Assembly: GCA_023664775.1 (NCBI GenBank)
Contig: JAMPEW010000002.1
Span: 16,027 to 80,026 of the forward strand
Direction of reading: 5' to 3'
DNA from: Clostridium sp.
GTDB taxonomy: Bacteria > Bacillota > Clostridia > Lachnospirales > Lachnospiraceae
Length of the DNA: 64,000 nucleotides
Shown: positions 5,804-46,033 of the stretch, piece by piece
Position numbering within the stretch: position 1 is the stretch's first letter
Layout: every line of letters starts with the position of its first letter
Position numbers and translations under genes: made by a program
The notes under the pieces: model-generated
Database searches by the model: none
What the model was told of the DNA's origin: nothing
What the model saw: the letters and a program-made list of their open reading frames with translations, nothing else

Positions 5804-5830
5804 ATGGCACCTCCTTACTATATTTGTCAA

Positions 5831-5893
5831 ATTATAACATATTTTCTCTACGTAAATCGAATGTCGTAATTAATACCTATTGCCAGTGTAATT
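5831..5893 (-). promoter_or_regulatory. Putative agrDB promoter with LytTR-type direct repeats
   Basis: Minus-strand extended -10 tgttataat (5831-5839). Upstream direct repeats aattacgac (about 5863-5871) and aattacac (about 5886-5893) lie 22 nt apart, matching AgrA-type box spacing. Confidence 0.45.
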
Positions 5894-5900
5894 TTTACCC

Positions 5901-5936
5901 AAAAAAAAGACCAAAGCGTCTCACGCATCGGTCTTT
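5901..5936 (-). terminator. Rho-independent terminator after the histidine kinase gene
   Basis: Minus strand reads aaagaccgatgcgtgagacgctttggtc followed by T8. Confidence 0.75.
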
Positions 5937-5951
5937 TCACTGTATCTAATT

Positions 5952-7944: not shown

Positions 7945-7981
7945 TCCAATCTCCCCTACATGTAATTAAAATATTTTATCC

Positions 7982-8212
7982 TTATTCTTTAAAAAGTTCC
8001 TCATAAGACACATTAAAAATTGTCTTTAAAAGCTTCAAGTCACTTGCCTTGATGTTCCTTCTTCCCGTTTCAATATTTGCCAACGTACTTCTTGACATAT
8101 TGCTGCCCATTAACTGCATCTGTGCAACAACCTCAACCTGTGTCATATTTTTCTTCATCCTGATTGTCTGGATATTTCTTCCCAAAGGAATATCCGCTAG
8201 AATCCATTGCAT
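7982..8212 (-). CDS. XRE-family HTH protein
   Basis: NIQTIRMKKNMTQVEVVAQMQLMGSNMSRSTLANIETGRR. Confidence 0.7.
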   Translation of the reverse strand: MQWILADIPLGRNIQTIRMKKNMTQVEVVAQMQLMGSNMSRSTLANIETGRRNIKASDLKLLKTIFNVSYEELFKE

Positions 8213-11300: not shown

Positions 11301-14300
11301 CGTTTTCATACAGGGGTGCAGGACTGTTCCCCTCAAACAGGTAGGCAAAGATAACATAGGTTTCACCTGCCAGATTCCTTCCGTCAAAATGGTAGGTTAC
11401 ATCCACGGTTCCACATTTTTCCTTTTCATTGGTTACATAGTCACTGTCCACTGTAAAGGTGGTCTGTGATACAATCGGATTCCCATTGTTATCAAGCAGC
11501 GGTTTTGCATTTTCTTCATCTGCTGAAGTGCTTTGATTCATAAGAATGCCTTTTACCGTGTAGGTCTCTCCTGCGGTGAGGAACTGATAAGATACCGTGT
11601 CCACAATCGTAACGTCTGCCTCTGCCACAGATAAATGACCTTCTGTCTTCGTGTCTCTGGCATATGTGGTAATCTGCGGCTCCATGATATCGGTGATGAT
11701 GCCGATGTTGTCTATTCGTCCGTCATCTTCCTCACTTATGACTGCTTTCACGCTCAGTTCAAGCTGTTTTTCCTGATTTTTGCTGCATGGGAGTTCTTCA
11801 ATGATATAGGTATCATATGGAAGGGCAAATTTGGTATCGTCAATCAGGTTTGTATCCCATTTGCTTTTGTCTGCCGTTCCGTAAAACCAGATGCCCGTTT
11901 CCACGCAGTCATCATAGCTTGTCAGGTCTTGTGACAAATATTTATCATTGCCGTTTGTATTCTCCGTATGCTTGATATGAGAGCTGTTGGAGGAGTAGTA
12001 ACCCGCACTGTCTGTCACGACGATATGGCTTTCTCCCGTGGTAGCCGATGTGATTTTGAATGGTATATTTACCATTTCTTTTCTTGTCTCGAAGTCCAAC
12101 TTGGTAAATGCCAAATCTCCACGGACAAGGGGTTCATATACGGAGATGGCTGTAGTAGTTAATGGGTTGCCAGCGACGATGGCGCCTTGGAGCTTGTCGC
12201 CGACGTAGAGGGAGGCACCTTCGATTGCTGTAGCATTTTCTTTTACCTGACCAATAAAGATGCCATTATCAACTATTCCGTTTGCATCTCTTAATGCTCC
12301 TCCCTCTGTTAAAAGTTTATAGCCGTCAGGTGCCTGGATTTCCTCAACTGTAACAGTACCAAGTGGAAGGGTCACATAATTATTCTCATCATAATATAAA
12401 TCATCGCCCATAACTTTATACTTATCCTCAAGTGCAGCAATATAGCATTCTTGTTCCTCGTCTAAAACCGTTTTAATAACCCACGCCCTTGTAGCTTCTT
12501 GTGGCAATTGATCAATATTATCATAATATCCATCATAATACTTCACTTCAAACAAGGCACCTTCCAGAGATGCACCACCAAGTGCAGATTTCCTGTTAGT
12601 CTCCTCATCCCATTTTACTAACATAATATTTATCGGATCATCCACCGGTACTTCTTTGCAGGTAACAGAATATATTTTGTCGGGCTCTTCCAAAGTAACC
12701 TTGTGCATGGTTGTCGTCGTTCCCTCATTGCAGGTATCTAACTTATAACCTTTGGATGCCTTGGTTTCCTTCACATAATAGGTGTCGAACGGAAGCTCCA
12801 GTACAGGTAGTTCTCCATTTACATTGGTTTTCAGATTTTCCGCCTTTTCCATTTTTATGATTTTTCCTGATGCATCCTTTTCCGTGATATACTCTGCAAC
12901 AATAAGGTTGCCTCTGTCCATTTTGTATATGGTATATTCCGCACCTTCCAGCGAGTAGCATCCATTGTCCCTCGTCATGTCGGGATTACTGCTCTCCTTC
13001 GTCACCCATACGCTTGCCGTCTCGATATAATCCTGCTCATTTACCTCCGTATTACTGTCATAATTTACGGCTACAAACTGTGACTCATGACTTATCCGAT
13101 AAGAGCCGTCAGACGGTGGCTTTATCTCGGTCACTGTGTAATTGCCTGGAAGCAGCGTCAGTGTTTCTTTTCCTGCATCATCAGCATTATACATGGTTGC
13201 CGTGACCGTATTTCCTTCTGCATCTTTCGCTGAAGCAACCACCTTCCCTTTACCCTCGGAATCCGTTTCAAAGAGACCGACTGTGGTATTGTCTCCTCCG
13301 GTAACTTTGTATACGGCTCCTTCCAGATTGTAGTATTGCCTATGGCTGTCGCTCTCTGTGATACTCGGTTCCCCGCTTTCCTTCGTTAAGGACATTGTCC
13401 CATATTCTTTGTAGCGGTATATGGCAAATCCGCTTGCGGACTTACTGGTATCCCCACTTCTGGTAAACAGCCAACTGACAGGTGTTTTATCTGTGCTACC
13501 GACTTTTTCATTTAATGCATTGCAAATATTCGGAACACTGTTTGTCCATGTGTCTCCCATGATTGCCGCATGGGTTCGATTTCCCAAACCGTAAAAAATA
13601 ATGATGTCGCCTGCTTTAATGTCACCTGACTCTACCAGTGCAATAAATGTATTTTCTGCATTTACCACCATGGTATTATTGGTACTTTCCGTCGCCTTCT
13701 TTGCCTCATATACTGTATCATATGACGTACAACCCGTACCTGATGCATTTCCTACCATGTTGTAGATTCTCTCAAACCTGTCATTTACTTCGAGAAAACC
13801 ATCCTGAAGACCTCCTACAGCCGGTGTATGTGCACTGCTTACTCCTGTTTCTTTTAAGCCCTCATGTATAACTCTGGAGGTCCAGCCTGCACAGGACCAG
13901 TTGCTGGTGGCATCATATCCACCGTCACCATATCCATCGGCTCCTGAAATGAGCATGTTGTTGTTCTGGATATAATTTTTCATCTTAGTCCAGTAAGAAT
14001 TTGTCTGAATGACACCGTCTGCATAAGTCTGCAGTTGCGTTTCCATGATTTCTGCTTCCTGAAGTATCGTTTCCGTTACTCCTCCTGCTTCTTTCATTCT
14101 CCAGAATATCAGGTCATATTCATTTTCTGTTGCCGTATCGCTGAGCAGAAAGACCTGAAAGTTTTTCATCGGGTCGGGAAGCGTGCTGATACATGCTTTC
14201 AGGCTTTCAACTGCCTGTGTCTCCTCTTCCGTCAGTTCCCCATGCCTGTTACAATGATATATTTCTTCAGCGTAGCCTGAAAGCAACAGATGGGATATGC

Positions 14301-14721
14301 CTGCCCGTTCTTCTTCCGTTACTGCATTACAAGACAGGAATGTTTCTTCCATGTCAGTCTGCATGTTCTGGTACCCCGGTGCCCCATAACTGTAGTATAC
14401 AGCTTTTGCAAGGGCTTCTTCCGTAACGGGAACCGGCTCTGCCGTAATGCTGCTTTCGGACATTTCGTAATCGGGTACGATGGCATATACATTTACATTT
14501 GTACTGTCCGGCATTTCATCGGTGGAATACCAGTTGGTTGTTCTGCTACCATATACATAGGAACCGCCTTTGTATATGGTGACGGTTTCTGCCGCGTCCG
14601 TTTCCGTTGTTGACGGGCTTTCCGGTTCCGCTGCATAGGCTGTCAATACATCCAGCGGACAGTTGGTGAGCAGCATGAGTGCAGACATGACGCCTGCTAT
14701 CATCTTTTTTACTTTTCTCAT
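8374..14721 (-). CDS. Giant sortase-anchored surface adhesin
   Basis: Signal peptide (start moved to MRKVKKM at 14721, after AAAGGAG). Cna-B/SpaA-like segments (GAVYKVTGG, LEGAEYTIY, LEGALFEVKYY). Eight VaFE/ester-bond-type repeats. C-terminal HPKTG, then a TM helix and RRKKRE. Confidence 0.85.
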   Translation of the reverse strand: MRKVKKMIAGVMSALMLLTNCPLDVLTAYAAEPESPSTTETDAAETVTIYKGGSYVYGSRTTNWYSTDEMPDSTNVNVYAIVPDYEMSESSITAEPVPVTEEALAKAVYYSYGAPGYQNMQTDMEETFLSCNAVTEEERAGISHLLLSGYAEEIYHCNRHGELTEEETQAVESLKACISTLPDPMKNFQVFLLSDTATENEYDLIFWRMKEAGGVTETILQEAEIMETQLQTYADGVIQTNSYWTKMKNYIQNNNMLISGADGYGDGGYDATSNWSCAGWTSRVIHEGLKETGVSSAHTPAVGGLQDGFLEVNDRFERIYNMVGNASGTGCTSYDTVYEAKKATESTNNTMVVNAENTFIALVESGDIKAGDIIIFYGLGNRTHAAIMGDTWTNSVPNICNALNEKVGSTDKTPVSWLFTRSGDTSKSASGFAIYRYKEYGTMSLTKESGEPSITESDSHRQYYNLEGAVYKVTGGDNTTVGLFETDSEGKGKVVASAKDAEGNTVTATMYNADDAGKETLTLLPGNYTVTEIKPPSDGSYRISHESQFVAVNYDSNTEVNEQDYIETASVWVTKESSNPDMTRDNGCYSLEGAEYTIYKMDRGNLIVAEYITEKDASGKIIKMEKAENLKTNVNGELPVLELPFDTYYVKETKASKGYKLDTCNEGTTTTMHKVTLEEPDKIYSVTCKEVPVDDPINIMLVKWDEETNRKSALGGASLEGALFEVKYYDGYYDNIDQLPQEATRAWVIKTVLDEEQECYIAALEDKYKVMGDDLYYDENNYVTLPLGTVTVEEIQAPDGYKLLTEGGALRDANGIVDNGIFIGQVKENATAIEGASLYVGDKLQGAIVAGNPLTTTAISVYEPLVRGDLAFTKLDFETRKEMVNIPFKITSATTGESHIVVTDSAGYYSSNSSHIKHTENTNGNDKYLSQDLTSYDDCVETGIWFYGTADKSKWDTNLIDDTKFALPYDTYIIEELPCSKNQEKQLELSVKAVISEEDDGRIDNIGIITDIMEPQITTYARDTKTEGHLSVAEADVTIVDTVSYQFLTAGETYTVKGILMNQSTSADEENAKPLLDNNGNPIVSQTTFTVDSDYVTNEKEKCGTVDVTYHFDGRNLAGETYVIFAYLFEGNSPAPLYENGSLNLTGAMTRRDGEVVRHTDLTDTNQTGTFPSIDTAAWTEKTGYNVSPAEENVVIHDKVSYTGLIPTYEYRLEGTLMDRDSGEELLDENGEPIKEIRYFVPEQADGELEIVFDAIDATGMEGDATVVYERLYWNNRNYASHVNLDDAEQTIFYPVIGTQAKDSETDEDRACADDSVTIVDTVMYENLMPGYEYKLRGELISQKTGEPITTSKGTKITAETTFIPEDFSGSIDVAFTFDAIDAELEGAVTVCYETLLINDIELAYHKDKNDKGQTIYFPSLKTSLRDADTGIQNTFLDEEIILVDTVSYANLVQGKTYHLEGTLMNKATGKPVTVNGEAVTAETTFTAEKSNGTVEVTFVFDGIAAGLEKKNALVAFERLYYEKEMEGEKRDIIIGIHEDINDVEQTVTIPEIATTLLGKETEDHMANAGGKTTIVDHVAYSGLVPGKKYTMTGTLMTEPETDGTEQTEAAQPLLINGKKVTVSKTFIPDKTDGIIDIEFTLDASALTGTHVVAFEECTYEGKKVAIHADIEDEDQKVDFPEIHTNALDSETKDHVANADENVTLVDTISYENLLADRIYTVKGTLMNKKTGEPVKDAEGKVITAETTFNTGMPAVGSAISIDENGNVTETEIGEMKRRTVSGSVTVTFTFNASVCGLEGMETVVFEELYCKGGLVAEHKDLDDKDQTITFGKIRTTAKDEATGMHTSAGGMITITDTVTYSGLLAGKDYKLQGVLMDKTTGKPLLVNGRELRVEQSFTAEKSYGEITLNFTLDASALEGTTVVVFETVYYNDKEVAVHADINDHDQSVYFPEIKTTARDKADGDKKLVTEGTVTVADTVSFTNLAPGETYVITGVLMDKTTGKPLLVNGQEVRAEKEFTPEASDGSIEMEFTFAADGLKGKELVVFESLYLKATGELVTEHADLNDADQTVSVTAERHPKTGDETPLKVVILIAVLSLLAGCGMFFAGRRKKRE
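8480..11715 (-). repeat. Eight tandem domain repeats of about 130-140 aa inside the adhesin
   Basis: Recurring T(I/L)VD(T)VSY.nL..G..Y...G.LM.K.TG.P... VVFE.LY...VA.H.D..D..QT(V)..P.I.T.A.D pattern, counted 8 times. Confidence 0.8.
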
Positions 14722-14756
14722 ATCTTGTTCTCCTTTCATTTTTCTAAATTAGGACA

Positions 14757-15738: not shown

Positions 15739-16456
15739 TCAGCTTCACCTACCCTTCTCATGAATCTTCCTGCTCACTCAGATATTAAAAAATGTCACCC
15801 ATTAGTGACATTATACCAAAACTTTTTTTATAAGTCTACTACAACAAAGACCTAATAAAATATATTTCTTTATCTGGGGATTCATTCCGATTCCTTCAAT
15901 TTATAATGGCATCACACTCCTTTTCCCACGCTTTTACCAACTCTACAGCCTCCCTTCTGTTGGAATTCATAGTGTCGGACAGCAATTTCACATAGCCGGT
16001 TCTGACCTGATTCATCACTCCCTTGCTATGTAAGTGTGCGTTTTTCCTCATCGCCCCGCACACATGGGAATTACAAACGAGCCGCTCAAAGGCGTTCACG
16101 ACGCATCTTTCGACACTATCTCCTCTCCTGCCGATTTTCGAGGATTGGGAAACCCTAATCGGTCACCCGTATGGATTATTATCCTTCCGCCACACTGAAA
16201 TCCTGCCTGCACGCTCCATCTTCACCGCTAGGTCCCTCAACTCTCACCGCATGCTCTAGCTGATAATCTGCCAAACAAATGTACCGGAATTTTACCCCGT
16301 ATAGTTTTTTCTCTAACTTATACGCTGTGGCAATTTCTCCCACAGAATTTGTAACTGCTATTCAGTTTTCTTAGTACAATATATCCAAACATAGAACTAT
16401 ATTTCTACAGTTCCATCTGCTTTGCTGTTTTGGACTTTGAATCTATTATATTTGAT

Positions 16457-24985: not shown

Positions 24986-25014
24986 ATATGCACATTGCAT
25001 ATGTGCATATTTTT
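24986..25014 (-). terminator. Bidirectional rho-independent terminator between the SET gene and gajA
   Basis: Perfect 10-bp stem atatgcacat / atgtgcatat with a 5-nt loop, flanked by an A-run and a T-run. Confidence 0.8.
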
Positions 25015-25043: not shown

Positions 25044-25535
25044 TTAGCCTTCTTTAATTTTATCTTTCAAATACTGTGCAAAATATGGATAATATTTTGC
25101 TTGTAAACTTGGTATTTTCCAGTCTCGTCCTGTAATAATATGCCTACAACAAGTGCTTCCACAATGACATTCAAAGGAATAATCCTCATTATCTATAAAT
25201 GCATAATCTATAGTAAGCTCTTCTCCAACTTTAATATCCTTTATTGCAATAAATGTAATCTCGCCATGCACTCCACAATTTGGTTCACAAGAGTGATTAT
25301 TATATAATTTCACATCAGTCTCTTCATCATGAGAAATTGCTCCTACAAAATAATCATCTGAAATAGGTAAATAACTATTAATAGTTGAAGACGAGAATAA
25401 TTCTTTTCGAGTTAAAATATGCCCGCCTTTAATATATACTATTTCTCCTTTTCTGATATATTCTTTAGCAAACATCCCCATTTTATTAATATCACTTTTA
25501 CAGACTTCGACTTTACTGCTTATAATAGATTTCAT
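25044..25535 (-). CDS. SET-domain methyltransferase
   Basis: YNNHSCEPNC, GEELTIDY, and a post-SET-like CHCGSTCCR. Confidence 0.8.
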   Translation of the reverse strand: MKSIISSKVEVCKSDINKMGMFAKEYIRKGEIVYIKGGHILTRKELFSSSTINSYLPISDDYFVGAISHDEETDVKLYNNHSCEPNCGVHGEITFIAIKDIKVGEELTIDYAFIDNEDYSFECHCGSTCCRHIITGRDWKIPSLQAKYYPYFAQYLKDKIKEG

Positions 25536-26599
25536 ATACTTTCCTCCAATAATGGAATTTCATGTAACAAGCAATGGATGCCACCACCCCCTAACAAAGG
25601 TTCTCGACTATAAATTTGAATGATGTCTCTGTCCCTAAAAATACTTTCGAACAAGTGCTTAACAGTTTCATCCGTTTCGCAATTAAATGCTGGAATTAGT
25701 ACAGCACCATTAATCATATAAAAATTCAAATACGATGCTGGTAAAATATCTCCAGCATTTCTTGATAACGCATCTGGATTAAATATTAATCCTTTTACCT
25801 CTACTTCATCCATATATTGGGTGGGTGGTAATGGAATAAAGTGAATACTGTACTTTTCATTATTTAAATTAGTAATATTTGATATGACATTATATGCTTT
25901 CCTTACACGATAATAATTGGGGTTTGTTCTATCCTCAGTCCATGCCAAACAAATTTCTTTATGATTTGCAAAAGATAATATATTATCTATATGCCCATTT
26001 GTTTCATCAGAAAATAGTCCCTGTTCTATCCAAACCATTCTTTGATCATGAGTTGCATTTAAAATAGTTTCTTCAACATACTCTCTTTTTTTAAAAGGAT
26101 TACGATTTCTATTAAGTAAAACACTTTTTGTTGCAAAAATCGTTCCCAATCCATCAGAAATGATTCCACCACCCTCAAGAACAAGATTTACTCTATTACA
26201 TGGTATATGAAAATAATCTGAAACTATAGATGCAAAGCCATCATCTGCATTCCAAGGATAATATGCCCCTTCTTTCCTTCCACCCCACGCATTAAATTTC
26301 CAATCTATAGTTTCTATATTACCGTCACAACGTATGAATGAAGGTCCAATATCCCTTGCCCAAATATCATCATATTCTGAAAAAACAACATTAACACCAT
26401 TAGGAAAAATCCCTGTTTGACTTGCAAAATTCTTAGGGCAAAACAGAAATACTGGTTCATATCTTGATATTATTGAAACCAAATCAAGAATATAACGTTG
26501 CATATGAACAGCATTATCTCTCCATATATCACTTCTAAAGGGAAACATTGCTATTGTACCATAATGCTTTTCAAATTCTCCAATTAATCCATTACTCAT
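25532..26599 (-). CDS. Agmatine deiminase / PAD_porph-family guanidino-group modifying enzyme
   Basis: FPFRSDIWRDN, DIWARDIGP, and a C-terminal GGGGIHCLLHEIP (catalytic Cys motif). 4-nt overlap with the SET gene. Confidence 0.75.
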   Translation of the reverse strand: MSNGLIGEFEKHYGTIAMFPFRSDIWRDNAVHMQRYILDLVSIISRYEPVFLFCPKNFASQTGIFPNGVNVVFSEYDDIWARDIGPSFIRCDGNIETIDWKFNAWGGRKEGAYYPWNADDGFASIVSDYFHIPCNRVNLVLEGGGIISDGLGTIFATKSVLLNRNRNPFKKREYVEETILNATHDQRMVWIEQGLFSDETNGHIDNILSFANHKEICLAWTEDRTNPNYYRVRKAYNVISNITNLNNEKYSIHFIPLPPTQYMDEVEVKGLIFNPDALSRNAGDILPASYLNFYMINGAVLIPAFNCETDETVKHLFESIFRDRDIIQIYSREPLLGGGGIHCLLHEIPLLEESI

Positions 26600-26619
26600 T
26601 TTGATTTTTCAATAACCTT

Positions 26620-27462
26620 TCATCTATTTAATTTCTTCATTTGAAGTTCGATTGCCTCTTCTGGATGATACCCTTCAAATACTCTTCCAGATTCAACATA
26701 CATATCAAAAGCAACTCCATTATACCCCCCATGAACCGGTACTATGCCGCCAGATATAAAACTTGCCTTATCAGAGATCAAAAAACTTACAACATTTGCA
26801 ATTTCAAATGTTTCAGCAAATCTTCCAAGCGGACACAACTGAGAGCCTGTACTCCTAGAGATAAATGGAACCATTTCTGATGAAATTGAATCAGTTTCAT
26901 CATAAGATTTAACCCAGCCTGGACATACTGCCGTTACACGTATCTTTTTATCATCATACCCCAAATTAATCGCCAAGCTATCAGTTAGATTTATAAGTGC
27001 CGCCTTGCTTGCAGCATACGCCATACTTGAAAACGAACCTTTCAAACCATCTGTGCTAACGATATTGATAATAACTGCTTTTGTATTCATCTGAGATTTT
27101 AATCCAGTACTAAGCATTAGTGGTGCTGTAACATTTACAGCAAAAACACGATCCCATGTTTCGAAATCATAATTATCAATATCTTCATCCCCACTAAACG
27201 CACCAGCATTATTAACTAAAGCATCTAACCTTATTTCTGAATCTTTAAAAAAACTGATTAGGGATTTTAGTGAACTACGATTCGAAATATCACATTGGAT
27301 AAACGAAATATTATTAGGATGTTTTTCATAATATTCTTTTGCCGTTGAATCTTTGCTATGATATAAAGCATAAACATAGAATCCGTCAGTAATCAACTGT
27401 CTCGCAATGGCAAAACCAATCCCTGTAGTCCATGAAACACCAGTAACTAATGCCTTTTTCAT
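26620..27462 (-). CDS. Short-chain dehydrogenase/reductase (SDR)
   Basis: KKALVTGVSWTTGIGFAIA (Rossmann motif), NNAG, YAASKAAL (YxxxK). Confidence 0.8.
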   Translation of the reverse strand: MKKALVTGVSWTTGIGFAIARQLITDGFYVYALYHSKDSTAKEYYEKHPNNISFIQCDISNRSSLKSLISFFKDSEIRLDALVNNAGAFSGDEDIDNYDFETWDRVFAVNVTAPLMLSTGLKSQMNTKAVIINIVSTDGLKGSFSSMAYAASKAALINLTDSLAINLGYDDKKIRVTAVCPGWVKSYDETDSISSEMVPFISRSTGSQLCPLGRFAETFEIANVVSFLISDKASFISGGIVPVHGGYNGVAFDMYVESGRVFEGYHPEEAIELQMKKLNR

Positions 27463-27480
27463 TTTTTACCTCCTAATTAT

Positions 27481-27873
27481 TTAATTAATTATATAATTTA
27501 ATACCAACAAAATTATTCCAAAAATAAACACCACTATCTGTACTATATAAATTAAAGTCCATTTAACATACGCATTTTTCGTTGCCTCTAAAACAATTTC
27601 TCTTTTTTTACCATAGTCAATTACATGTTTTTCAATAATATAATTTTGAAACTTGCTCAACTTTGCTGCAAAATACATACATAAAGCACCTGTCAACAAA
27701 AATATTAATGTTGAGAGATATAAATGCCAATGAGCATATATATCAGCCTTTTCAAAGCATAGACTTGTAAAAATATTCACTGATAATGCAACAAAAATAC
27801 CACTTATAAATGTATACACATTATTATTAACTAGCATTAATGGTACACATACTTTTAAATACAAAATTTTCAT
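27481..27873 (-). CDS. Small integral membrane protein (3-4 TM helices), unknown function
   Basis: Hydrophobic helices throughout. 4-nt overlap with the upstream PAS gene. Confidence 0.55.
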   Translation of the reverse strand: MKILYLKVCVPLMLVNNNVYTFISGIFVALSVNIFTSLCFEKADIYAHWHLYLSTLIFLLTGALCMYFAAKLSKFQNYIIEKHVIDYGKKREIVLEATKNAYVKWTLIYIVQIVVFIFGIILLVLNYIIN

Positions 27874-29069
27874 AATTCTCCACTAAGTTGATGCTGAATC
27901 TCCAAAAATTGTTGTTCCAGAGTTTTAAATTTTTCCTCCATCTGTATTCTAATAAACTGTAACTCTGTTTCACTATTTAAAACTGAAGCATCTGATAATG
28001 TCTTATCCGTATATATATCAGCATCTTTTTTATATTCCAATATACGTTGCTTCATGTCAACAAATGATTTATACATACTAGATTCAGAATTAGGCATTGG
28101 ATTAACTTGATCTCTATAATCAGAAATTTCTTTCTCAATTTTTAACATAATGCTGTGTGCTAACTCTGACAGAGAACGACTACGTGATGCAATATCGCGA
28201 AGTATTGCGTCTCTCTCTGAAATAAAAGTATCATCCATATCATATTCATGTGATACCTCTTCAACATCTAATACGATATCTTCAAACGAATCCAAAATCT
28301 CATTATATTGCTTAAAAAAAGACTGCCTAGTTTCTTCACATTTATCATACGATGCACATGTTTGAATTTTAGAATAATATTCATCAACAGTCGAGTTCAA
28401 CTTATCTGTAATATCAGACAATGCAGTTTTTATTACTGAAATATTTCTTTTAAATTCAGTCCTCCGTCTAAGTGTAATAGCTTTTTTTTCACAGTTACGT
28501 ATTGCGGTATTAAGCGACATTTTTCTATCTAAAAAATGCTCTTTTAATTGGGAAGCATTATCTATAAATTGTTTTACACAAGAACTAATACGCTGACTTT
28601 CTGTTACAATAAGTTTTAACCTTTCTTTTTCCTGCTCTAGATAATCAATAATTAGACCCATTTCTGCATTCCAATATTCCCCAGTGACAGGATCCTTAAT
28701 TCTTCTACAGTTCGTTACCAACTGCAACGTATTACCATTTTTACCTTTGTCATTAGCAATATTATGAAAAAGAGCTGCATTATCAATTATATCAATCTGA
28801 TCACGTCGAGCGGCTACTTTTTCATCAGGAGCTACAAATAAATCAACAAAATCTTTACCTAATACCTCTTCACTACTAAAACCATATAAAGATTCGCATT
28901 GACCAGACCAAAATTTAATAATACAATTTCTATCACTTGCCCATACTGTAAACGGAGAAGCATCAAGGATAATAAGTTTCATCTGATCTTCGTATGTAAA
29001 TGCTCTCTTGATTTTCATTTCTTCAATATACGCTATCAATTCTTCTTTTGTCATATCTTTATAATTCAC
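27870..29069 (-). CDS. PAS-domain protein with a long helical/coiled-coil C-terminal region, no recognisable output domain
   Basis: ILDASPFTVWASDRNCIIKFWSGQCESLYGFSSEEVLGKDFVDLF is PAS-like. The rest is heptad-rich helical sequence. Confidence 0.6.
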   Translation of the reverse strand: MNYKDMTKEELIAYIEEMKIKRAFTYEDQMKLIILDASPFTVWASDRNCIIKFWSGQCESLYGFSSEEVLGKDFVDLFVAPDEKVAARRDQIDIIDNAALFHNIANDKGKNGNTLQLVTNCRRIKDPVTGEYWNAEMGLIIDYLEQEKERLKLIVTESQRISSCVKQFIDNASQLKEHFLDRKMSLNTAIRNCEKKAITLRRRTEFKRNISVIKTALSDITDKLNSTVDEYYSKIQTCASYDKCEETRQSFFKQYNEILDSFEDIVLDVEEVSHEYDMDDTFISERDAILRDIASRSRSLSELAHSIMLKIEKEISDYRDQVNPMPNSESSMYKSFVDMKQRILEYKKDADIYTDKTLSDASVLNSETELQFIRIQMEEKFKTLEQQFLEIQHQLSGEL

Positions 29070-29117
29070 ACCATTTCCTCCCTCCTACTTAATTGTAAAA
29101 CTCTTATAGAATATTCA

Positions 29118-30269
29118 TTAAGGATGCAAATATGGATATGTTTTACACTCACCAAGTTCCCTATAAAGTCGACGAACCGCCCTACATTTTACTAAATTCT
29201 GACCACTAAGTTTTCCTGTTTCGTTTACTGTTTCACCCAAACAATAACCACCACAATGGAGTTTCGCTGGGCATGACTTACAATGATTCATTTCTGTCGA
29301 ACGACGCTTATTTAACGCCTTAATCCTTTCGCTATATAATTCAAACGATTTCGTATTAGCATTCCACTTTCCTACAATAAATGGCTTCATATGATATGGA
29401 TCTGCTCCTGACACAACCATATCACATGCAGATATGTAGCCATCTGGTGTTAAGTGAGGTGCATTTTGCGGAGTGCAACAACGACAATGATATGAAGATT
29501 CACCATCAAAATTAATAGTGAGAAAGCTTCCCCAAAATACTCCTTTACTTTGAGCATAATAATAAGCTTTAAGATAATTATCAACATATAAATCCATATC
29601 AAAATGATATGCATCTTTTTTTTCCTTATCCTCACATATAGGAATTTTCCCCACTGCATAAAACAAGGGATTAGTCCAAACATAACATATTCCAAGACTA
29701 TAAAAATAATCTACCATATCAATTTGCTTATCAATGTTTTTATCTGTTATAGTTACTCTTGCACCAACCATTAATTTACGGTTTTGCTTATTTTCATTTA
29801 GCCAACGGACATTATCTTCCAATATTTCTGCAGATGTTTTGCCGTTAAAATCTTGATTAAAAAAAGGATTAAGAGGGCGATTATATTCCTGAATTTCTTT
29901 CATTCCATCAAAGGACAGCCAAATAATATTAAAATTGTCTAATGCCCAATTACGTACATCTTCTGTAAATACACCATTTGTCTGAATTTCTACAGTAACT
30001 CTATCTCCTCCATTTGGATGTAATTTAGCATAAGAAGTAATTTGCTTAAGAATTTCAAATTCTTGAGTTGGCTCGCCCGGTCCATAAAATCTAATATGGC
30101 GACTATCATTATTAGAAAAATACCAGTCTATTCCAGCTTTTGCAATTTCCAAAGAAAGTGTTTTTTCTTCCATTGCATTACGTTCTTTCGCATTATAACA
30201 ATAACGACAACATAAATTGCAACGTGTTGTCAAAAAAAATGATATCATTCTTTTATTACAATGTGGCAT
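29118..30269 (-). CDS. Radical SAM enzyme with a SPASM-type C-terminal Cys cluster
   Basis: TTRCNLCCRYCYN (Cx3Cx2C), GPGEPT, and a C-terminal CKSCPAKLHCGGYCLGE. Confidence 0.8.
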   Translation of the reverse strand: MPHCNKRMISFFLTTRCNLCCRYCYNAKERNAMEEKTLSLEIAKAGIDWYFSNNDSRHIRFYGPGEPTQEFEILKQITSYAKLHPNGGDRVTVEIQTNGVFTEDVRNWALDNFNIIWLSFDGMKEIQEYNRPLNPFFNQDFNGKTSAEILEDNVRWLNENKQNRKLMVGARVTITDKNIDKQIDMVDYFYSLGICYVWTNPLFYAVGKIPICEDKEKKDAYHFDMDLYVDNYLKAYYYAQSKGVFWGSFLTINFDGESSYHCRCCTPQNAPHLTPDGYISACDMVVSGADPYHMKPFIVGKWNANTKSFELYSERIKALNKRRSTEMNHCKSCPAKLHCGGYCLGETVNETGKLSGQNLVKCRAVRRLYRELGECKTYPYLHP

Positions 30270-30325
30270 TTCCAGACCTCCATTATTAAATTTTTAAATA
30301 TAAGCATTTGATACTATTTAACAAA

Positions 30326-30667
30326 TCAGCATTTGCTTTCATTTCTCAATGTGTACCGTAAACTCTTTATCACCGACAAAATAACCTTCATCTCATAATC
30401 CGAACAATCACTCAGTTCTTTCATAAGCACATTCTTCATTTCCGAACTATCAGATACCTCCGGATAAAATACCTGATAAAGCGGCAAATCCAACTCTCTC
30501 ACTAACATACACAGCAATTCAAACTTCGGATTTCCAGTATTCTTTTCAATATCCATAATTGTCCTTTTACAGACACCAAGTTTCTCGGCTAATGCCTCCT
30601 GAGATAAATTTTTACTTTTTCTTGTTGCACGGACAATACTGCCTAATGCACTTACTGACTGGTTCAT
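30326..30667 (-). CDS. XRE-family HTH regulator heading the seven-gene operon
   Basis: IVRATRKSKNLSQEALAEKLGVCKRTIMDIEKNTGNP. Confidence 0.75.
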   Translation of the reverse strand: MNQSVSALGSIVRATRKSKNLSQEALAEKLGVCKRTIMDIEKNTGNPKFELLCMLVRELDLPLYQVFYPEVSDSSEMKNVLMKELSDCSDYEMKVILSVIKSLRYTLRNESKC

Positions 30668-30812: not shown

Positions 30813-30859
30813 AAAAATCCGGTCTATTTTGTAAGCAAACTCACTCCAAAATAGACCGG
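30813..30859 (-). terminator. Rho-independent terminator after the recombinase remnant
   Basis: 12-bp stem ccggtctatttt (30819-30830) / aaaatagaccgg (30848-30859). A T-run follows on the minus strand. Confidence 0.75.
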
Positions 30860-30876
30860 AAATCTCTGTGTCATAT

Positions 30877-31158
30877 TTAATTGTTCAATTTCCCCTCAAA
30901 CTTCCATACTATATCAATCCTGTTCCCCAGATAGACAATAATCTTTTCAATCAACTTTTCTTTCATATCCTCTGTCAGTTCTTCCTCCTCCAGAAAGACA
31001 AAAGTCTGGTCCGCTTTCCTTTGGGAGCCTTCCTGTTCTTCCTGTGTCTGTCGGAGCGCTGCAAGTTCTTCTTCCAGCTTCCCCATATTGGCATCATACT
31101 GTTTCTTTTCGTTCAGGAAGAAGCCTCTTTCCATTTTGCCTTGTAGGGGAGGGTTCAA
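30877..31158 (-). pseudogene. 3' remnant of a large serine recombinase gene
   Basis: Coiled-coil MGKLEEELAALRQTQEEQ, then ELTEDMKEKLIEKIIVYLGNRIDIVWKF, which resembles the C-terminal tail of TnpX/TndX-type recombinases. No catalytic domain. GC-richer than its flanks. Confidence 0.55.
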
Positions 31159-31223: not shown

Positions 31224-31994
31224 TTATATTTCATTTTTTTCTTTGATTATGTTTCGAATCCACTCATATTGCTTTTCATATATATTATATGGATGAACTA
31301 TCTTTTTCAATCTTTCTTGATGTGAATCACTTCCTATAGATGCATAAAGACAATTTCGAGATATTATATCTTCAATAAGTGCGACATCTTCTTTAGAATG
31401 TTTAGGAGTAATTAGCTCCACTGTATCAATTCCTAAAGAAAGAATAAATTGTTCAACACTTTGAGCACTAAAGCCAGCAAGCGATTCCATTGGATGTGCC
31501 AATACCGGTATTCCTTGTGCGTTAACTATGGCACTTATTATCGTAGATGCAGGAACAGAGTGGCATTGTTCTTTATACTCAATATTATTCTTTCTCCAAA
31601 AATCTTTTGAATCTATATATTCTGGTAATGGAACATTAATCCGAAATGGATTTTTAGGCAAATTCTGTATATTAAATCCATTTTGCTTTAATATTTTATT
31701 AATAATTGAAACCCGCAATTTTTTGACCTTATTAACAATTTTAATCATCTCTTTGTTTTGAGCATTAAAGTTATATCCCAATATTTCAATATATTGTCCA
31801 TTATGATTACAACAGATTTCTACTCCTGACAAATATTTTGTCGAACCACTTCCATGATATTTTGACGGATCAAAAATATTCTCATGATCTGTAAATGCAA
31901 TTAAATTATAATTGGAATATAAATCAGGAATAGAATCTTCTATGTCTATCTTTCCATCTGAACACTTGGTATGAATATGTAAATCAATACACAC
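31224..31994 (-). CDS. PHP-family metal-dependent phosphoesterase (TrpH/YciV-like)
   Basis: CIDLHIHTKCSDG, AFTDHE, LAHP, GSDSH. Confidence 0.75.
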   Translation of the reverse strand: MCIDLHIHTKCSDGKIDIEDSIPDLYSNYNLIAFTDHENIFDPSKYHGSGSTKYLSGVEICCNHNGQYIEILGYNFNAQNKEMIKIVNKVKKLRVSIINKILKQNGFNIQNLPKNPFRINVPLPEYIDSKDFWRKNNIEYKEQCHSVPASTIISAIVNAQGIPVLAHPMESLAGFSAQSVEQFILSLGIDTVELITPKHSKEDVALIEDIISRNCLYASIGSDSHQERLKKIVHPYNIYEKQYEWIRNIIKEKNEI

Positions 31995-32012
31995 TTTTTT
32001 TAACCATCCTTC

Positions 32013-33083
32013 CTATAACAATAACGGTTCTTTTACCGTTTCTTTATTTATATAATCTGCATTTATTTGTGAAAGGTATTGACTAAAACGATAATGTCTG
32101 CACGCCTTTAATGGGCATCTTCCCTCACACATCTCTTTAGAATATATGTCTATAAACTCCTTTTCATCACTGATTTTATTATTTCTATTTGCGTTTGCTG
32201 CAATACACGGAAAAATTTCTCCCTCTGCATTTATAAGTCTATATAAGCCTGTATTTGCAAAAAAACATTTTTGGGGATGAGGAAATGTACTATAGATAAA
32301 ATCATCCAAATTATCAATTAAAAAATCATATTGTTTTGCAATATTATGGTTATATGCCTGATAACGTATTTCTTTGATAACAGAATCTTCTGCCAAATCT
32401 TCATTAAACAAAAAGTTTTGTTGATACTTTATCACTATACTATCAGCCCCTTTGTTCATTGCATAATCTAAATAATAGGGAAGGAGTGAATAGTTCCCTT
32501 TATTTATTAAAATTTTCAAAGCAACCTCTTGGCATGATTTTTTTTGACTTAAAAGGAAAGATATATTTTTATCAATACGATCAAAAGAATTAACTCCTGT
32601 TATAGCTTTACTTGTGACTTCATTAAACCCTGTAACATGTATTTGATAAAAGTCAAATTCTCTCCAAAAATCTTTGATTCCCTCAAAATTAAACATATTT
32701 GTTGCAATGCCAAAACTACATTTTTTATCTATCTTCGCAAAAAAATCTTTCCAGTATTCCTAGACCAGTGGATCTCCACCACCTGAAAAGAAAACACTTC
32801 TTAAATCATATTGTCCGTATCGTTCCAATACTGAAGACACTTGTTCTACAGTAAGTGATTTTCCATTATGTCTTGTACTATAGGAACATCCATTACAATT
32901 CAAATTGCATCGATTAGTTAAATGGAACTCAATTTCCCAAATTGCATTATCTTTGCCAATACAATCTTTTCTAATTTGAAAAGCCAATCCTATTTTATCT
33001 AACAGGAAACTATCCACACTCTTTCTGTTAGTAAAAACAATTGCCTGATGTGGAATATATTTCTCATTCCGTTTAATGTTCAT
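32013..33083 (-). pseudogene. Radical SAM gene interrupted by one in-frame TAG (32760-32762)
   Basis: FHLTNRCNLNCNGCSY (Cx3Cx2C), FFSGGGDPLV, TAG, then in frame EYWKDFFAKIDKKCSFGIATNMFNFEG... The two track ORFs (32760..33083 and 32013..32696) share one frame. Confidence 0.7.
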
Positions 33084-33178
33084 TCATTTCAACCTCAAAA
33101 AATGCAAGTAACAAGCATATAGATTACCATATATTCGTTAATTGCAAAACTCTTTTGCAATTTAGTCATTCCATATAT

Positions 33179-33817
33179 TTACAAACTAATTTTATAATTT
33201 AGTACTATCTTATCATTTTCATAATCAATGCCTATTGGTTCCGCAACCAAGTTAGCATTTTTATATTTCTCACCCAGTTGGGTAAAAATAAAATCTCTCG
33301 GAGAATAAAAATGCGGTAATGGCAACTGTATTAATTCAGTATCGTTCTCCTTCACATTCACTTCAACATAATAATCTCGTTCGACATAATTAGGTATAAT
33401 TTTAAAAAAAGATTTAGCAGGTATTGAATAACTCTTATGTGGTATTTTACCTGAAATAGTATCTTTATATCCTTGTGGCATAAAAACTGTTTCAACTTCA
33501 TTTTTATCAACCCAATGAAGCGTTCCTCCATCCTCATCAATCAATATATCCGGAATACTTAACGCTTTGCATATAAACGGTACTATAATTATATTTTTCA
33601 ATCCTATTTCATAAAGCCATGGTTCTTTGAATCCTAATACCTCAACTTTTATACCCGATTCTTCTTTAAATTCTGTAATTAAGCGAAACTCTGCAGAAGC
33701 ATCTCCTTTTTCTAAACGCCCACCTAATAATTCATACTCACATCTTTCATTTTTTCTAAGAAGTAACTTTCCATCAATCTCTATCACACCCTTAATAGAA
33801 ACACCAAAACGATCCAT
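33179..33817 (-). CDS. Nudix hydrolase with a C-terminal extension of about 90 aa
   Basis: Nudix box GGRLEKGDASAEFRLITEFKEESGI. Start moved to the ATG at 33817, 9 nt after GGAGG. Confidence 0.75.
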   Translation of the reverse strand: MDRFGVSIKGVIEIDGKLLLRKNERCEYELLGGRLEKGDASAEFRLITEFKEESGIKVEVLGFKEPWLYEIGLKNIIIVPFICKALSIPDILIDEDGGTLHWVDKNEVETVFMPQGYKDTISGKIPHKSYSIPAKSFFKIIPNYVERDYYVEVNVKENDTELIQLPLPHFYSPRDFIFTQLGEKYKNANLVAEPIGIDYENDKIVLNYKISL

Positions 33818-33848
33818 AATAATTTCCTCCATAATTAATTCACATTTT

Positions 33849-34922
33849 TTATAAACCAATATACTCAATCAATAACTGATTCCCAACAAGAAAGCCACAA
33901 ATTAAAAGTATAAACCCAATTACAAAACAAATTAGAACTTTTAGAACTTTTAATTTGACCTTTGAAGAAAAATACAATAACATTCTGAATGTAGTAAAAG
34001 CAATAATAAGTGTACCTCCAAACATAAGAATAATGCCTGCACATCTATTAAAATCATCAATTTCAACTACAATATTTACTGATGTCAAAATAAAAGCTAA
34101 AATAGACGAAAAAAACGCTAAATATTCTAAATACTGCGTTTTAATATTATCCAGATTATTTTCTATTCCTTCAAATGTTGAATTAAACTCAGCAATCTTA
34201 TTATCTACTTGATGATTTTCCATCATCATCTTAATTTGAAGTAAAAAATAATTATATTGACCTATTCTAATCATAGAATCTTTATCTACTACACCCTCCA
34301 TATCCAATGCTTTCTTAACACATGAAATACCTCGGCGATAATCTCCCGTAGACGCAATTAAACGCCCTTGAGTACAATAATATTTTGCATGATTAGGATG
34401 AGCAATGATTACATCATCAAGCCTTTCAATAGCTTTGTTGATTTGAGAAATATTTATATCAACATTTTCTTCAATAGCAAGAGCAATTATCTCAGCATAA
34501 TGATGTTTAACAGCCAAATTAGTTGGCAATACATCACATGCTTCTTCTGCATACCTAACAGCTCGACTATACCCGTCTTCTTCTCCAAGAATTCCTTTAT
34601 TACGAAAATACGTAGACATTACTATTTTATATAAATTATACTGTTTAAATTCATTTGCATAGTTATCCACATATGTATTATATTTTGAATAGTTATTAAA
34701 CTCTCGGCAAATAATGAGTAATGCGTAAAAGGCAGAGAACCGATGATTTGAATTAACATCTTTCAAATAATTTTCCACATCATTCTCTCTGTTCAATAAA
34801 TTATTACTCAGAACGACTTTTTTAAGTCTAATTGTATAATCATCATCGTTTTCATTCGGCAAGTTAGCTAATAAAGATTCAATACTTAGTATCACTGGTG
34901 CATTGTTACCTCGCCTTGCCAT
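33849..34922 (-). CDS. TPR-like helical-repeat protein with C-terminal TM helices
   Basis: The N-terminal 260 aa or so are helical-repeat-like (AEIIALAIEEN, AKYYCTQGRLIASTGDYRRGISCVKKAL). C-terminal hydrophobic helices (LAFFSSILAFILTSVNIVV, AGIILMFGGTLIIAFTTF, LICFVIGFILLICGFLV). Confidence 0.55.
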   Translation of the reverse strand: MARRGNNAPVILSIESLLANLPNENDDDYTIRLKKVVLSNNLLNRENDVENYLKDVNSNHRFSAFYALLIICREFNNYSKYNTYVDNYANEFKQYNLYKIVMSTYFRNKGILGEEDGYSRAVRYAEEACDVLPTNLAVKHHYAEIIALAIEENVDINISQINKAIERLDDVIIAHPNHAKYYCTQGRLIASTGDYRRGISCVKKALDMEGVVDKDSMIRIGQYNYFLLQIKMMMENHQVDNKIAEFNSTFEGIENNLDNIKTQYLEYLAFFSSILAFILTSVNIVVEIDDFNRCAGIILMFGGTLIIAFTTFRMLLYFSSKVKLKVLKVLICFVIGFILLICGFLVGNQLLIEYIGL

Positions 34923-40849: not shown

Positions 40850-41284
40850 TTAATCGTTCTGCCAGTCCGCCGCATCATTGAAGGAAAAAGAACCGTTGAG
40901 CCGTTTTACTTCTTTGATGCATTCTCCCCGCAGCCGCTCCAGTGAGATTCTGTCAATTTCCTGCGATGCAGCAACCACATTCATGGTAACGGCAAGCTCT
41001 ACCGCCAGCTTGAACAGCATCCTGCTGACTCGGTTATCGCTTTCTGCCACAATGCTCTTTAGTGTGGATACGATAATCGAAGAGAGATAGTCTTTATTCT
41101 TTTCTGAGGAAAGATATCCGACATAGAATAGAACCGCTTTTTCAATAAATTCACTTTGGGAATTGCAGTTGTCTTCTTTATACAGCTCCCTCACTTTGTC
41201 AAGGGTCGACTCCCGAACCCATAGGGCAAATTTTCGCTTGGGTTCCTTGCGGTTCGTTTCTCCTTGATAATTAATTGCCATCAT
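40850..41284 (-). CDS. Ribbon-helix-helix relaxosome accessory-like protein
   Basis: KRKFALWVRESTLDKVRELYKEDNCNSQSEFIEKAVLFYVGYL. Start moved to 41284, 8 nt after AAAGGAG. Confidence 0.55.
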   Translation of the reverse strand: MMAINYQGETNRKEPKRKFALWVRESTLDKVRELYKEDNCNSQSEFIEKAVLFYVGYLSSEKNKDYLSSIIVSTLKSIVAESDNRVSRMLFKLAVELAVTMNVVAASQEIDRISLERLRGECIKEVKRLNGSFSFNDAADWQND

Positions 41285-41414
41285 ATACATCACTCCTTTG
41301 TCTGTTTCTGGTATAAATGGGTTAGTCAAAAACTTTCTTACTATCAATATATGTTTTCCTGCTATCTATATCTTCTAAAAACATTATCGATTAGATTGAC
41401 ACCGCATACTTAAC

Positions 41415-41454
41415 AAAAGCAAAAAGCCCTCACTTTTAGCATGAAAAGCGAGGG
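41415..41454 (-). terminator. Rho-independent terminator after the four-gene cargo operon
   Basis: Stem ccctcactttt (41427-41437) / aaaagcgaggg (41444-41454). T-rich tail on the minus strand. The stem sequence is the same as in the terminator at 332-363. Confidence 0.65.
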
Positions 41455-41584
41455 TATATAACTGAGCTTCTTTAATAGATAAATAATCACTATGTTTACT
41501 TTAAATCTGTTTATTTTTTTGATTCCATTCTACTGCCCTTTACCATTTTTTTCCAAAACAATTTATAAAATAACCATGAAATTT

Positions 41585-42163
41585 TTAATATTTTTCCGAT
41601 ATCTTTCCCCATACCACTTCGTTAAGATATATTTTTTCTTCCTTAATAGTGATAACATTCCATTTCAGCAAATCAGAAATATTTCTATCTAACATTTTCA
41701 TATCAAAATCTTTTATTTGATAATCATTCAACATTTCTAATATTTTATCTTTTAACTGTTTTACCGTAATTCCAATCTCATATGCATCCAATAAATGAAG
41801 GGCATATATGATAACTGCACTATTATCATCTAACTCTCTTTTAGTAATTGTTCCTATGCATAAAATAGAAATAACAGCTAATTGAAGGTATTCAAATATT
41901 GTTTCTGGACTGTTAAAGGATGCAACAAATTCGATTATTGCAATAAGCACACTTTTTAAGTCCAATCTTATATTTCCTAATTTGTAAGAAGTAGCCTCCT
42001 TCCCAAGAACAATCATGGTCCGCTTAGGGTCTTCTGGAATTATTTCTAAATATTGTTCCATTATCATGTTTCCAATAGATAAGTCTAAATCTTTTCTTTT
42101 AGAATATTTTTCTAATATTTTCTGAATTTGACTATCTAATTGTTTAGCTTCATCTCTATTCAT
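41585..42163 (-). CDS. Small helical protein, unknown function (fourth gene of the operon)
   Basis: Intact ORF overlapping the upstream gene by 8 nt. No motif recognised. Confidence 0.5.
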   Translation of the reverse strand: MNRDEAKQLDSQIQKILEKYSKRKDLDLSIGNMIMEQYLEIIPEDPKRTMIVLGKEATSYKLGNIRLDLKSVLIAIIEFVASFNSPETIFEYLQLAVISILCIGTITKRELDDNSAVIIYALHLLDAYEIGITVKQLKDKILEMLNDYQIKDFDMKMLDRNISDLLKWNVITIKEEKIYLNEVVWGKISEKY

Positions 42164-43196: not shown

Positions 43197-43240
43197 ATAT
43201 ACCCCCTCCCAAAACATTCCAGCATTATTCGCTGTTATTT

Positions 43241-45705: not shown

Positions 45706-46033
45706 AACAATACCCTCCTGTTATAATGGTATCTTATGGGTTTCAAGTTGTCAACCCTTATATTTTTCAATATTTGTTTCTTATTTCTAACCCACATATT
45801 TACTCACAAACACTGCCCTTTTATCAGATTCTCAACCCACAAGATGCCCTATCCGAAATAATACTGACCCCCTAAAGATATTCCAGCTAAATTTCCTACA
45901 GCTCCCCAAACGGTCGGCGTTGCCGTCCGAAGTAAAGCGAGTCGGGGGTGTATCTGTAACCCCGACTCTTTCTCCTGCTTGATTTTCGACCCTATATTTT
46001 TACTTCGTCTATTAAGCAACCTTATACATGAAA

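Follow-up and report, generated by a model that had tools for sequence, protein, structure and literature searches.

Why should seven tightly packed genes, encoding an unusual mix of enzymes, lie together beside a Gabija defence system? The question is raised by a 64,000-nucleotide stretch of DNA from Clostridium sp. (Lachnospiraceae; assembly GCA_023664775.1, contig JAMPEW010000002.1, positions 16,027 to 80,026), hereafter the window, in which seven co-oriented open reading frames (ORFs) run along the minus strand from 30667 to 25044. An initial annotation, made from the sequence alone, had described these genes as an XRE-headed operon and had suggested either a conflict system or a small-molecule pathway. 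We find that six of the seven genes form a genuine, conserved and mobile cassette that is apparently undescribed. These six encode a radical S-adenosylmethionine (rSAM) enzyme with a SPASM domain, a PAS protein, a protein with three transmembrane segments (3-TM protein), a short-chain dehydrogenase/reductase (SDR), an agmatine-deiminase-type hydrolase and a SET-domain methyltransferase. As to function, we tentatively favour a conflict cassette that would combine small-molecule chemistry of the agmatine type with a sensor-effector module made of the PAS and TM proteins, a reading to which we give somewhat less than an even chance.

A conserved and mobile six-gene unit

The operon begins with a gene for an XRE-family helix-turn-helix (HTH) regulator of 113 aa (30326-30667; Pfam HTH_3, 7.9e-10). 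It is followed by the genes for the rSAM enzyme, which has a full SPASM domain (383 aa, 29118-30269; Radical_SAM, 4.7e-9), the PAS protein (399 aa, 27870-29069; PAS, 9e-7) and the 3-TM protein (130 aa, 27481-27873), recognised by its three hydrophobic segments. A classical SDR (280 aa, 26620-27462; adh_short_C2, 3.4e-45), the agmatine-deiminase-type guanidino hydrolase (355 aa, 25532-26599; PAD_porph, 2.3e-85) and the SET-domain methyltransferase, with a post-SET Cys motif (163 aa, 25044-25535; SET, 4.2e-16), complete the set. From the XRE to the SET gene the intergenic gaps are 56, 48, -4, 18, 20 and -4 nt, the two negative values being start/stop overlaps of 4 nt between the PAS and TM genes and between the deiminase and SET genes. 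Coordinates and spacers thus match those first described, and the domain assignments of the initial annotation are upheld by Pfam and NCBIfam. None of the operon proteins reaches a curated NCBIfam equivalog cut-off.

Terminators on both flanks insulate the operon. At its 3' end a bidirectional intrinsic terminator (24986-25014; -15 kcal/mol, z -3.7) forms the boundary with Gabija, as in the initial annotation; its stem is a perfect 14 bp, with an A-run on one side and a U-run on the other. At the opposite end a strong minus-strand terminator (30813-30860; -25.7 kcal/mol, z -7.7, then UUUUU) lies upstream of the XRE promoter region and parts the operon from the remnant of a serine recombinase. 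No RNA element was found in the operon with Rfam, and no flanking repeats delimit it.

The six-gene core, with its order kept, recurs in about 20 independent loci of Bacillota and Gastranaerophilales, so the gene arrangement is not due to chance. One locus, reordered, comes from an unclassified metagenome-assembled genome (MAG). The shared order is seen in loci L001-L012, L014, L015, L017, L022, L029, L038, L039, L062-L067, L069 and L073-L075, among which L001-L004 and L012 are Lachnospiraceae MAG loci. Locus L033 holds five of the six genes, in the order rSAM-SET-PAD-SDR-PAS, with no recognisable 3-TM gene. Every readable context of a deiminase homologue contained the block rSAM, PAS, TM, SDR, deiminase and SET, and an exact-sequence look-up with the window deiminase returned no match. 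Conservation of the set as a unit in other genomes, on which the initial annotation had made its proposal depend beforehand, is therefore what we observe.

The rSAM family itself is sporadically distributed: a scan of 185,579 species representatives yielded about 33 loci from three phyla, at 56-78% identity, in Lachnospiraceae, Acutalibacteraceae, Eubacterium, Christensenella, Anaerosporobacter, Gastranaerophilales and several Bacteroidota. Ten of these loci are of the six-gene type (type A), either in full or as far as visible. A functional link within the unit is supported by gene fusions, with deiminase::SET proteins of about 520 aa in 13 of the best 120 clusters of deiminase homologues and SET::GNAT proteins in L017, L030 and L065.

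The XRE gene stands outside the unit. Elsewhere its place is taken by another small HTH protein or by an XRE gene read in the divergent direction, or neither is recognised; the XRE proteins of these loci, often divergently oriented, are only 25% identical to that of the window, and in some a 74-83-aa HTH_26-like protein lies directly upstream of the rSAM gene. The window XRE protein resembles regulators of defence systems (PADLOC HTH_VI, 1e-11; capH; control proteins). It is a local regulator, not a core component, so that a seven-gene operon with XRE at its head describes the window locus correctly, whereas the conserved unit comprises six genes. Nor do the operon genes belong to Gabija, from which a terminator separates them and which is absent beside the operon in all other loci.

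In several loci mobility genes adjoin the cassette. At L065-L067 it occupies a minimal island between SpoIIE and tRNA-synthetase genes; apart from the operon of six genes, here with a SET::GNAT fusion, the island has little more than a large serine recombinase and a Mob_Pre relaxase. Judged by its gene content, the L065 element is an integrative mobilisable element. The fused-gene version at L005-L007 adjoins a relaxase, and Mu-like prophage transposition genes flank the operon at L069, on a single IMG/VR contig. The C-terminal part of a serine recombinase directly precedes the cassette in the window, L014 and L028 alike, pointing to a favoured site for cargo.

Defence genes are frequent neighbours. 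At L001 these include SIR2_2, SLFN/AlbA-ATPase, DUF3800, TatD and PemK genes, and at L062 ThsA_Macro (Thoeris-like) and Fic. Loci L008-L011, all from one gut lineage, share a fixed left flank and have right flanks of four kinds; here a PARIS-like AAA_15/DUF4435 pair, Cas9, an SLFN helicase, Macro or a prophage integrase gene occurs, with variable content downstream. Type II CBASS, PD-Lambda-3, PDC-S20, KAP NTPase and Hypoth_Ymh genes are found near seven further genome loci. Relatives outside type A adjoin SIR2-HerA, type I restriction-modification systems, MADS components, MzaA, an RHS toxin and LHH/SUKH pairs, as well as Tet(M)-like genes, genes of integrative and conjugative elements (ICEs) and serine recombinases.

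The enzymes and their membrane-associated partners

The rSAM protein carries the CX3CX2C motif at residues 17-24, only 16 residues from its N-terminus. Because it starts directly at this motif, it has no recognition element for ribosomally synthesised and post-translationally modified peptides (RiPP recognition element, RRE) of the CteB type; its alignment with CteB begins at CteB residue 101, past the RRE of that enzyme. In the SPASM region CX13GX4C, CX2CX5CX3C and the final Cys are all invariant. The protein aligns end to end with the SPASM maturases PapB, ScfB, anSME and DynA, its best NCBIfam match being PapB (98 bits vs a cut-off of 340). An AlphaFold2 (AF2) model (predicted local distance difference test (pLDDT) 81) gave CteB, TigE, anSMEcpe, ChlB, SkfB and SuiB as top Foldseek matches (TM-score 0.63-0.70, 16-19% identity), and these predicted structural neighbours indicate a fold class, not a reaction. 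The best sequence and fold matches, CteB, PapB, QhpD and anSME, share the complete SPASM cysteine pattern at 17-19% identity; the cassette differs from these maturases in having neither RRE nor precursor gene and in the unusual uniformity of its rSAM family. Of its 714 homologues, the 120 clusters ranked highest have identities of 71% or more, and almost all of these measure exactly 383 aa. Identity is 66-78% among Bacillota-type loci and 56-59% in a Bacteroidota-type branch. Phage and plasmid collections contained no close homologue, and IMG/VR contributed one contig.

The same rSAM family also heads cassettes of other composition (L013, L016, L018-L021, L023, L024, L026-L028, L030-L032, L037, L041, L043 and L070), at 66-75% identity in most and 56-59% in L037 and L043. 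In L013, L016, L018, L019, L028, L032 and L070 the rSAM gene is combined with a different SDR, a TM/coiled-coil protein of about 350 aa and a GNAT acetyltransferase. A two-TM protein of unassigned fold is encoded beside the rSAM gene in L020, L023, L027, L031 and L041, and a two-TM protein upstream of it in L039 and L043. L024 and L026 have two TM-anchored proteins after the rSAM gene, next to an oppositely oriented second rSAM gene with two SDRs; L030 has rSAM, GNAT, two TM proteins, an SDR and SET::GNAT, and L043 has rSAM and SET. Read from these gene contents, four roles recur: an rSAM enzyme, an SDR, a putative amine-modifying enzyme and a membrane-associated protein. The TM-anchored partners fall into two groups, one with two TM helices and a domain bearing an EIWIxSxD...GVxYxYxxP motif, the other combining a coiled coil with TM helices and a domain marked by S...YY...WA...EW...R motifs. 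Single-sequence Pfam scans and profile searches against PDB sequences assigned no family to these groups (c7/c12 and c6/c17), and a profile-profile comparison between c7/c12 and c6/c17 gave no match.

In L018 (Blautia schinkii, 9217-9750) and L016 (9120-9749) the rSAM-SDR-TM-GNAT cassette is seemingly inserted in a bacillosamine-type glycan locus, where a truncated sugar-transferase gene stops at the insertion and each side has its own copies of CapD, DegT and transferase genes. A 32%-identical rSAM on a C. perfringens plasmid (L068, NZ_CP102303) forms part of an MFS-SDR-AsnB-AMP-binding-rSAM-rSAM cluster. An AMP-binding enzyme and a carrier protein adjoin the divergent type-A operons at L005/L006 (3068-5986) and L017 (16327-18101). 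These last neighbours, together with the L068 cluster, may point to chemistry of the acyl or aminoacyl type in the wider family.

The guanidino hydrolase belongs to a distinct subfamily of the agmatine-deiminase type, as judged by its sequence. It has 688 homologues at E <= 1e-20, the best 120 clusters of which are 48-91% identical to it. Its best PDB matches are plant agmatine iminohydrolases (AIHs; 2e-68), the peptidyl-arginine deiminase PPAD not being among its PDB matches, and it is about 40% identical to true agmatine deiminases. With residue roles taken from the Medicago AIH (PMC6447857), all 121 clade sequences carry invariant equivalents of Asp89, Trp91, Asp94, Trp125, Asp220 (as Glu), His224, Asp226 and, in the gate loop, Arg301; that of the catalytic Cys366 is present in 120, the remaining one having an alignment gap. 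The gate-keeping loop is as long as that of the plant AIH. All agmatine-binding residues being kept, a free butyl-guanidine or amine substrate is indicated rather than peptidyl-arginine, and the architecture points to a closed-tunnel enzyme that would bind a terminal amine. The fold proposed by the initial annotation, agmatine deiminase or peptidyl-arginine deiminase, is therefore retained, and of the two types it named the invariant residues favour the first. The likeness to AguA and the plant AIH extends to the fold, the Cys-His-Asp triad and every agmatine-contacting residue. The cassette enzyme nevertheless falls below the AguA equivalog cut-off (TIGR03380; 315.7 bits vs 381.8), has the clade motif C[IL]LHE[IV]P in place of CITQQQP and is always coupled or fused to SET.

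The SET protein contains NHSCxPN and ELxxDY motifs and a post-SET Cys cluster. Its nearest PDB sequences are the SET domains of MLL/KMT2 proteins; BurB is also matched, weakly and in part (residues 80-137, 9e-8). BurB is a SET-domain methyltransferase that acts on free methionine, at sulfur (PMC12542666). It is thus a precedent for a bacterial SET enzyme with a free small molecule as substrate, although its methylation is of sulfur, not nitrogen, and it has no link to a deiminase. Since the butyl-amine of agmatine or N-carbamoylputrescine mimics a lysine side chain, the deiminase, SET and, in relatives, GNAT might each modify one or the other end of a single agmatine-like molecule. The SDR matches 226 NCBIfam SDR families, none above cut-off; its identity is 71-83% in the eight type-A loci with a 3-TM gene, against 34-52% in L017, L033 and L038, which are divergent.

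The PAS protein, which is confined to this operon type, had been annotated as lacking an output domain. Its AF2 model (pLDDT 90) nevertheless has a C-terminal part: the PAS domain, at about residues 40-140, is followed by six long helices predicted with confidence. Foldseek matched the PAS part to ARNT PAS-B, FixL and RpfR, and found no structural match for the helical region. The homologues listed, 120 of 154, are nearly all 385-410 aa long, and precomputed Pfam domains of the listed homologues are of PAS type only, bar two isolated minor matches. The two halves diverge at very different rates, with a mean identity of 75% in the PAS part and 37% in the helical part. Cys49 and Cys121 of the PAS domain are invariant and Cys58 is nearly so. 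A LOV-type or heme-type PAS domain was considered and rejected as unsupported, the conserved Cys and His residues lying off the canonical positions on inspection of the alignment and model.

In all loci read, the 3-TM gene, where present, follows the PAS gene. Its product has hydrophobic segments at residues 19-41, 50-73 and 100-130 and a motif, NNNVYTFxSGI, conserved across loci; Pfam, NCBIfam and PADLOC gave no match to it.

A proposed conflict function and its alternatives

In the scheme that we propose, the cassette would travel as cargo of integrative elements and defence islands, held in check at the window locus by the XRE protein as repressor. The deiminase, as its intact active site suggests, would turn the guanidino group of agmatine, or of a close butyl-guanidine analogue, into a ureido group. 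The SET enzyme would then methylate the butyl-amine end as a mimic of the lysine side chain, a step suggested by the fusions and by the BurB precedent; in some relatives GNAT, fused to SET or replacing SET and deiminase, may acetylate the amine. Radical oxidation by the rSAM/SPASM enzyme and NAD(P)-dependent redox by the SDR would take place on the same scaffold or make its partner. More speculatively, the PAS and 3-TM proteins, whose genes are translationally coupled, could serve as a membrane-associated sensor or effector, the conserved PAS pocket binding the product or a cue and the fast-evolving helices contacting a variable partner. The net role would be anti-phage, antibacterial or directed against mobile genetic elements, either by way of a modified metabolite resembling a polyamine or by depleting agmatine or polyamines.

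The genomic context, the precedents for rSAM enzymes in defence and the asymmetric divergence of the PAS protein speak for a defence function, which, with a product of this kind, is the likeliest of the readings considered. Of the two possibilities raised by the initial annotation, a conflict system or a small-molecule pathway, the former agrees with neighbourhoods rich in defence and mobility genes, context being what suggests a defence role. A broader form of the proposal would make the rSAM enzyme the mark of a new modular class of conflict systems, composed of an invariant rSAM/SPASM enzyme, an SDR, an amine modifier (SET or GNAT, with or without deiminase) and a membrane coiled-coil or TM protein. 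At the window locus a methylated or ureido polyamine made from agmatine would then be the effector or the ligand of the PAS/TM pair. We regard this wider class as an attractive though doubtful extension.

A number of observations weigh against a conflict function or against its agmatine chemistry. A recognised defence gene lies within 10 kb in about half of some 15 type-A contexts, which is a raw fraction, and mobile-element cargo in general sits near defence genes. PADLOC 2.0 gave no match for the PAS, TM, SDR, PAD or SET proteins. All sequence and fold neighbours of the rSAM enzyme are SPASM enzymes that modify peptides or proteins, company in which a protein would be a more fitting substrate than a polyamine. 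The rSAM enzyme is also far more conserved than its partners and occurs without deiminase and SET, so the agmatine branch may have a tailoring or accessory role outside the central chemistry. Neither an arginine decarboxylase nor a transporter is linked to the cassette. Finally, the 32%-identical rSAM relative in a biosynthetic-looking cluster and the AMP-binding and carrier genes at two type-A loci hint at ordinary natural-product biosynthesis.

This last hint can be taken further. The cassette might be a non-immune mobile accessory trait, concerned with a specialised metabolite or a niche (an antibiotic, a signalling amine, an osmolyte, or the detoxification or modification of guanidino compounds or amines), which we judge unlikely while giving it serious weight. 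Its mix of rSAM, SDR, hydrolase and methyl- or acetyltransferase is typical of biosynthetic clusters, an APH-like kinase gene follows SET in L073 and Tet(M)-like and ICE genes occur as neighbours, in line with the AMP-binding and carrier-protein genes beside L005, L006 and L017 and with the C. perfringens plasmid cluster. Yet the six genes have no conserved companion that encodes an exporter, a core scaffold synthase or resistance, and the 3-TM protein falls outside the transporter families of Pfam. Defence genes recur nearby, the cassette sits in variable hotspots, and fast divergence restricted to the C-terminal part of the PAS protein and the TM protein is commoner in conflict systems. An ordinary pathway for agmatine catabolism or putrescine, or unrelated genes brought together by chance, would be compatible with a deiminase close to true agmatine deiminases with its active site intact. 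This explanation can be given next to no credence: the enzyme scores below the AguA cut-off, and Pfam annotation of about ten neighbourhoods revealed no N-carbamoylputrescine amidase (AguB), putrescine carbamoyltransferase, carbamate kinase or antiporter. The deiminase clade is always linked or fused to SET, and the order of the six genes is kept across phyla in AT-rich mobile islands; conserved synteny and fusions effectively refute this explanation.

If the substrate were a protein, as the kinship of the rSAM enzyme would allow, the cassette might resemble HXS. An rSAM/SPASM enzyme without RRE would cross-link or otherwise modify a co-encoded protein, and deiminase, SET and GNAT, the classical trio of Lys/Arg side-chain modifiers, would edit Arg and Lys charges on an effector or target. 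Candidate substrates would be the PAS protein, whose cysteines are conserved, the 3-TM protein and the membrane-anchored proteins of the other cassettes. Several of the best rSAM matches are RRE-less or act on whole proteins (PapB, QhpD, ScfB/CteB, anSME, DynA), the rSAM gene always stands beside the PAS/TM pair or a TM-anchored protein, and in HXS itself phage defence can come from a protein effector that an rSAM enzyme has matured (PMC13128918). Yet a closed agmatine tunnel and a residue for binding the terminal amine, kept in every one of the 121 clade sequences, fit poorly with a peptidyl-arginine substrate. Between cassettes whose rSAM enzymes are 66-78% identical, the putative substrates are wholly different proteins, with no shared motif seen, and the HxsB model falls far short of its cut-off, so that we think maturation of this kind improbable. 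A classical RiPP cluster with an overlooked precursor gene is far less probable again, despite the relationship of the rSAM enzyme to thioether-forming maturases. The ORF list of the window contains no precursor-like ORF in the intergenic gaps of the operon, and upstream of the rSAM gene in 32 loci no conserved ORF of at least 25 aa was found except those for HTH proteins, extending what had first been noted for the window. The rSAM enzyme lacks an RRE, and no protease or ABC exporter was found in any locus read.

Comparison with described systems agrees with the novelty of the cassette. PADLOC, NCBIfam and Pfam hold no model for the six-gene set, and full-text literature searches found no paper on the combination of rSAM, agmatine deiminase and SET; the earlier remark that no described system has this composition therefore stands with respect to curated pathways, PADLOC models and full-text papers. 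HXS, Ophion and viperin, each with rSAM in defence, are to be taken as functional analogies, and the cassette is a member of none of them. Prokaryotic viperins (pVips) likewise place an rSAM enzyme in defence islands, with a proposed logic of a modified small molecule. They are encoded by a single gene, lack SPASM and act on nucleoside triphosphates, whereas the SPASM domain of the cassette rSAM has two clusters and the enzyme comes with five obligatory partners. The PADLOC pVip match is limited to the N-terminal core (residues 7-127, 2e-9), no full-length viperin match was obtained, and viperins rank below SPASM enzymes in Foldseek (TM-score about 0.47). HXS (HxsA-D) shares SPASM-type rSAMs and a multigene anti-phage organisation, and matures a protein effector that is not a RiPP. 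It is characterised by an HxsB/HxsC pair, an effector with HxS repeats and HxsD, whereas the cassette has one rSAM only, which scores 68.6 bits with the HxsB model (TIGR03978) vs a cut-off of 370. Among the operon genes none was recognised as resembling HxsA or HxsD, the HxS-repeat motif not having been searched for specifically. Ophion (bioRxiv 10.1101/2025.09.30.679545) is also a multigene defence system with an rSAM enzyme and small-molecule, in this case nucleotide, chemistry; it combines rSAM with PHP and a phosphoribosyltransferase (PRTase), and the operon contains no PHP or PRTase gene by Pfam. Closer to Ophion is a separate unit of the window, an rSAM-PHP pair at 31224-33083, with Nudix where Ophion has PRTase.

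Should the proposed conflict function hold, the cassette would bring a new enzymatic logic to bacterial immunity, in which radical chemistry is joined to modification of agmatine- or polyamine-type amines by a deiminase fused to SET, and bacterial SET domains would gain a small-molecule role. The modular polyamine class, if true, would be the first example of polyamine-based chemical immunity. If the cassette is biosynthetic instead, its product is probably a new class of natural product that spreads on mobile elements of the gut microbiome. A uniform rSAM enzyme with interchangeable partners also offers a tractable entry into an unexplored family, found mainly in uncultured anaerobes of gut and rumen.

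The island around the operon

The operon lies in an AT-rich island at 16-35 kb of the window (27-34% GC), flanked by a backbone of 42-49% GC that encodes a type IV secretion system coupling protein. Downstream of the operon are Gabija (GajA 5e-181, GajB 5e-209) and a YobI/Tmn NTPase, which bears out the AT-rich island and the neighbouring Gabija of the initial annotation.

Upstream, a minus-strand cluster at 31224-34922 encodes a TPR/TM protein of 357 aa, a Nudix-like protein with a weak PDC-S07 match, an rSAM protein and a PHP phosphoesterase. The rSAM gene of this cluster comprises 356 codons, is interrupted by one in-frame TAG at 32760-32762 and may be a pseudogene. Between the cluster and the operon, a 93-aa ORF (30877-31158) resembles the C-terminal remnant of a large serine recombinase (DUF4368-like); its GC content is above that of the island, and the very strong terminator at 30813-30860 follows it. 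At the left edge of the island a full-length Clostridiales-3 small RNA (Rfam RF02942, 161 bits) occupies 16029-16247 on the minus strand. Elsewhere in the window, further AT-rich stretches (29-36% GC) break the backbone at 1-8000, 41000-46000 and 60000-63000, and an ORF of 2121 aa extends over 8374-14739.

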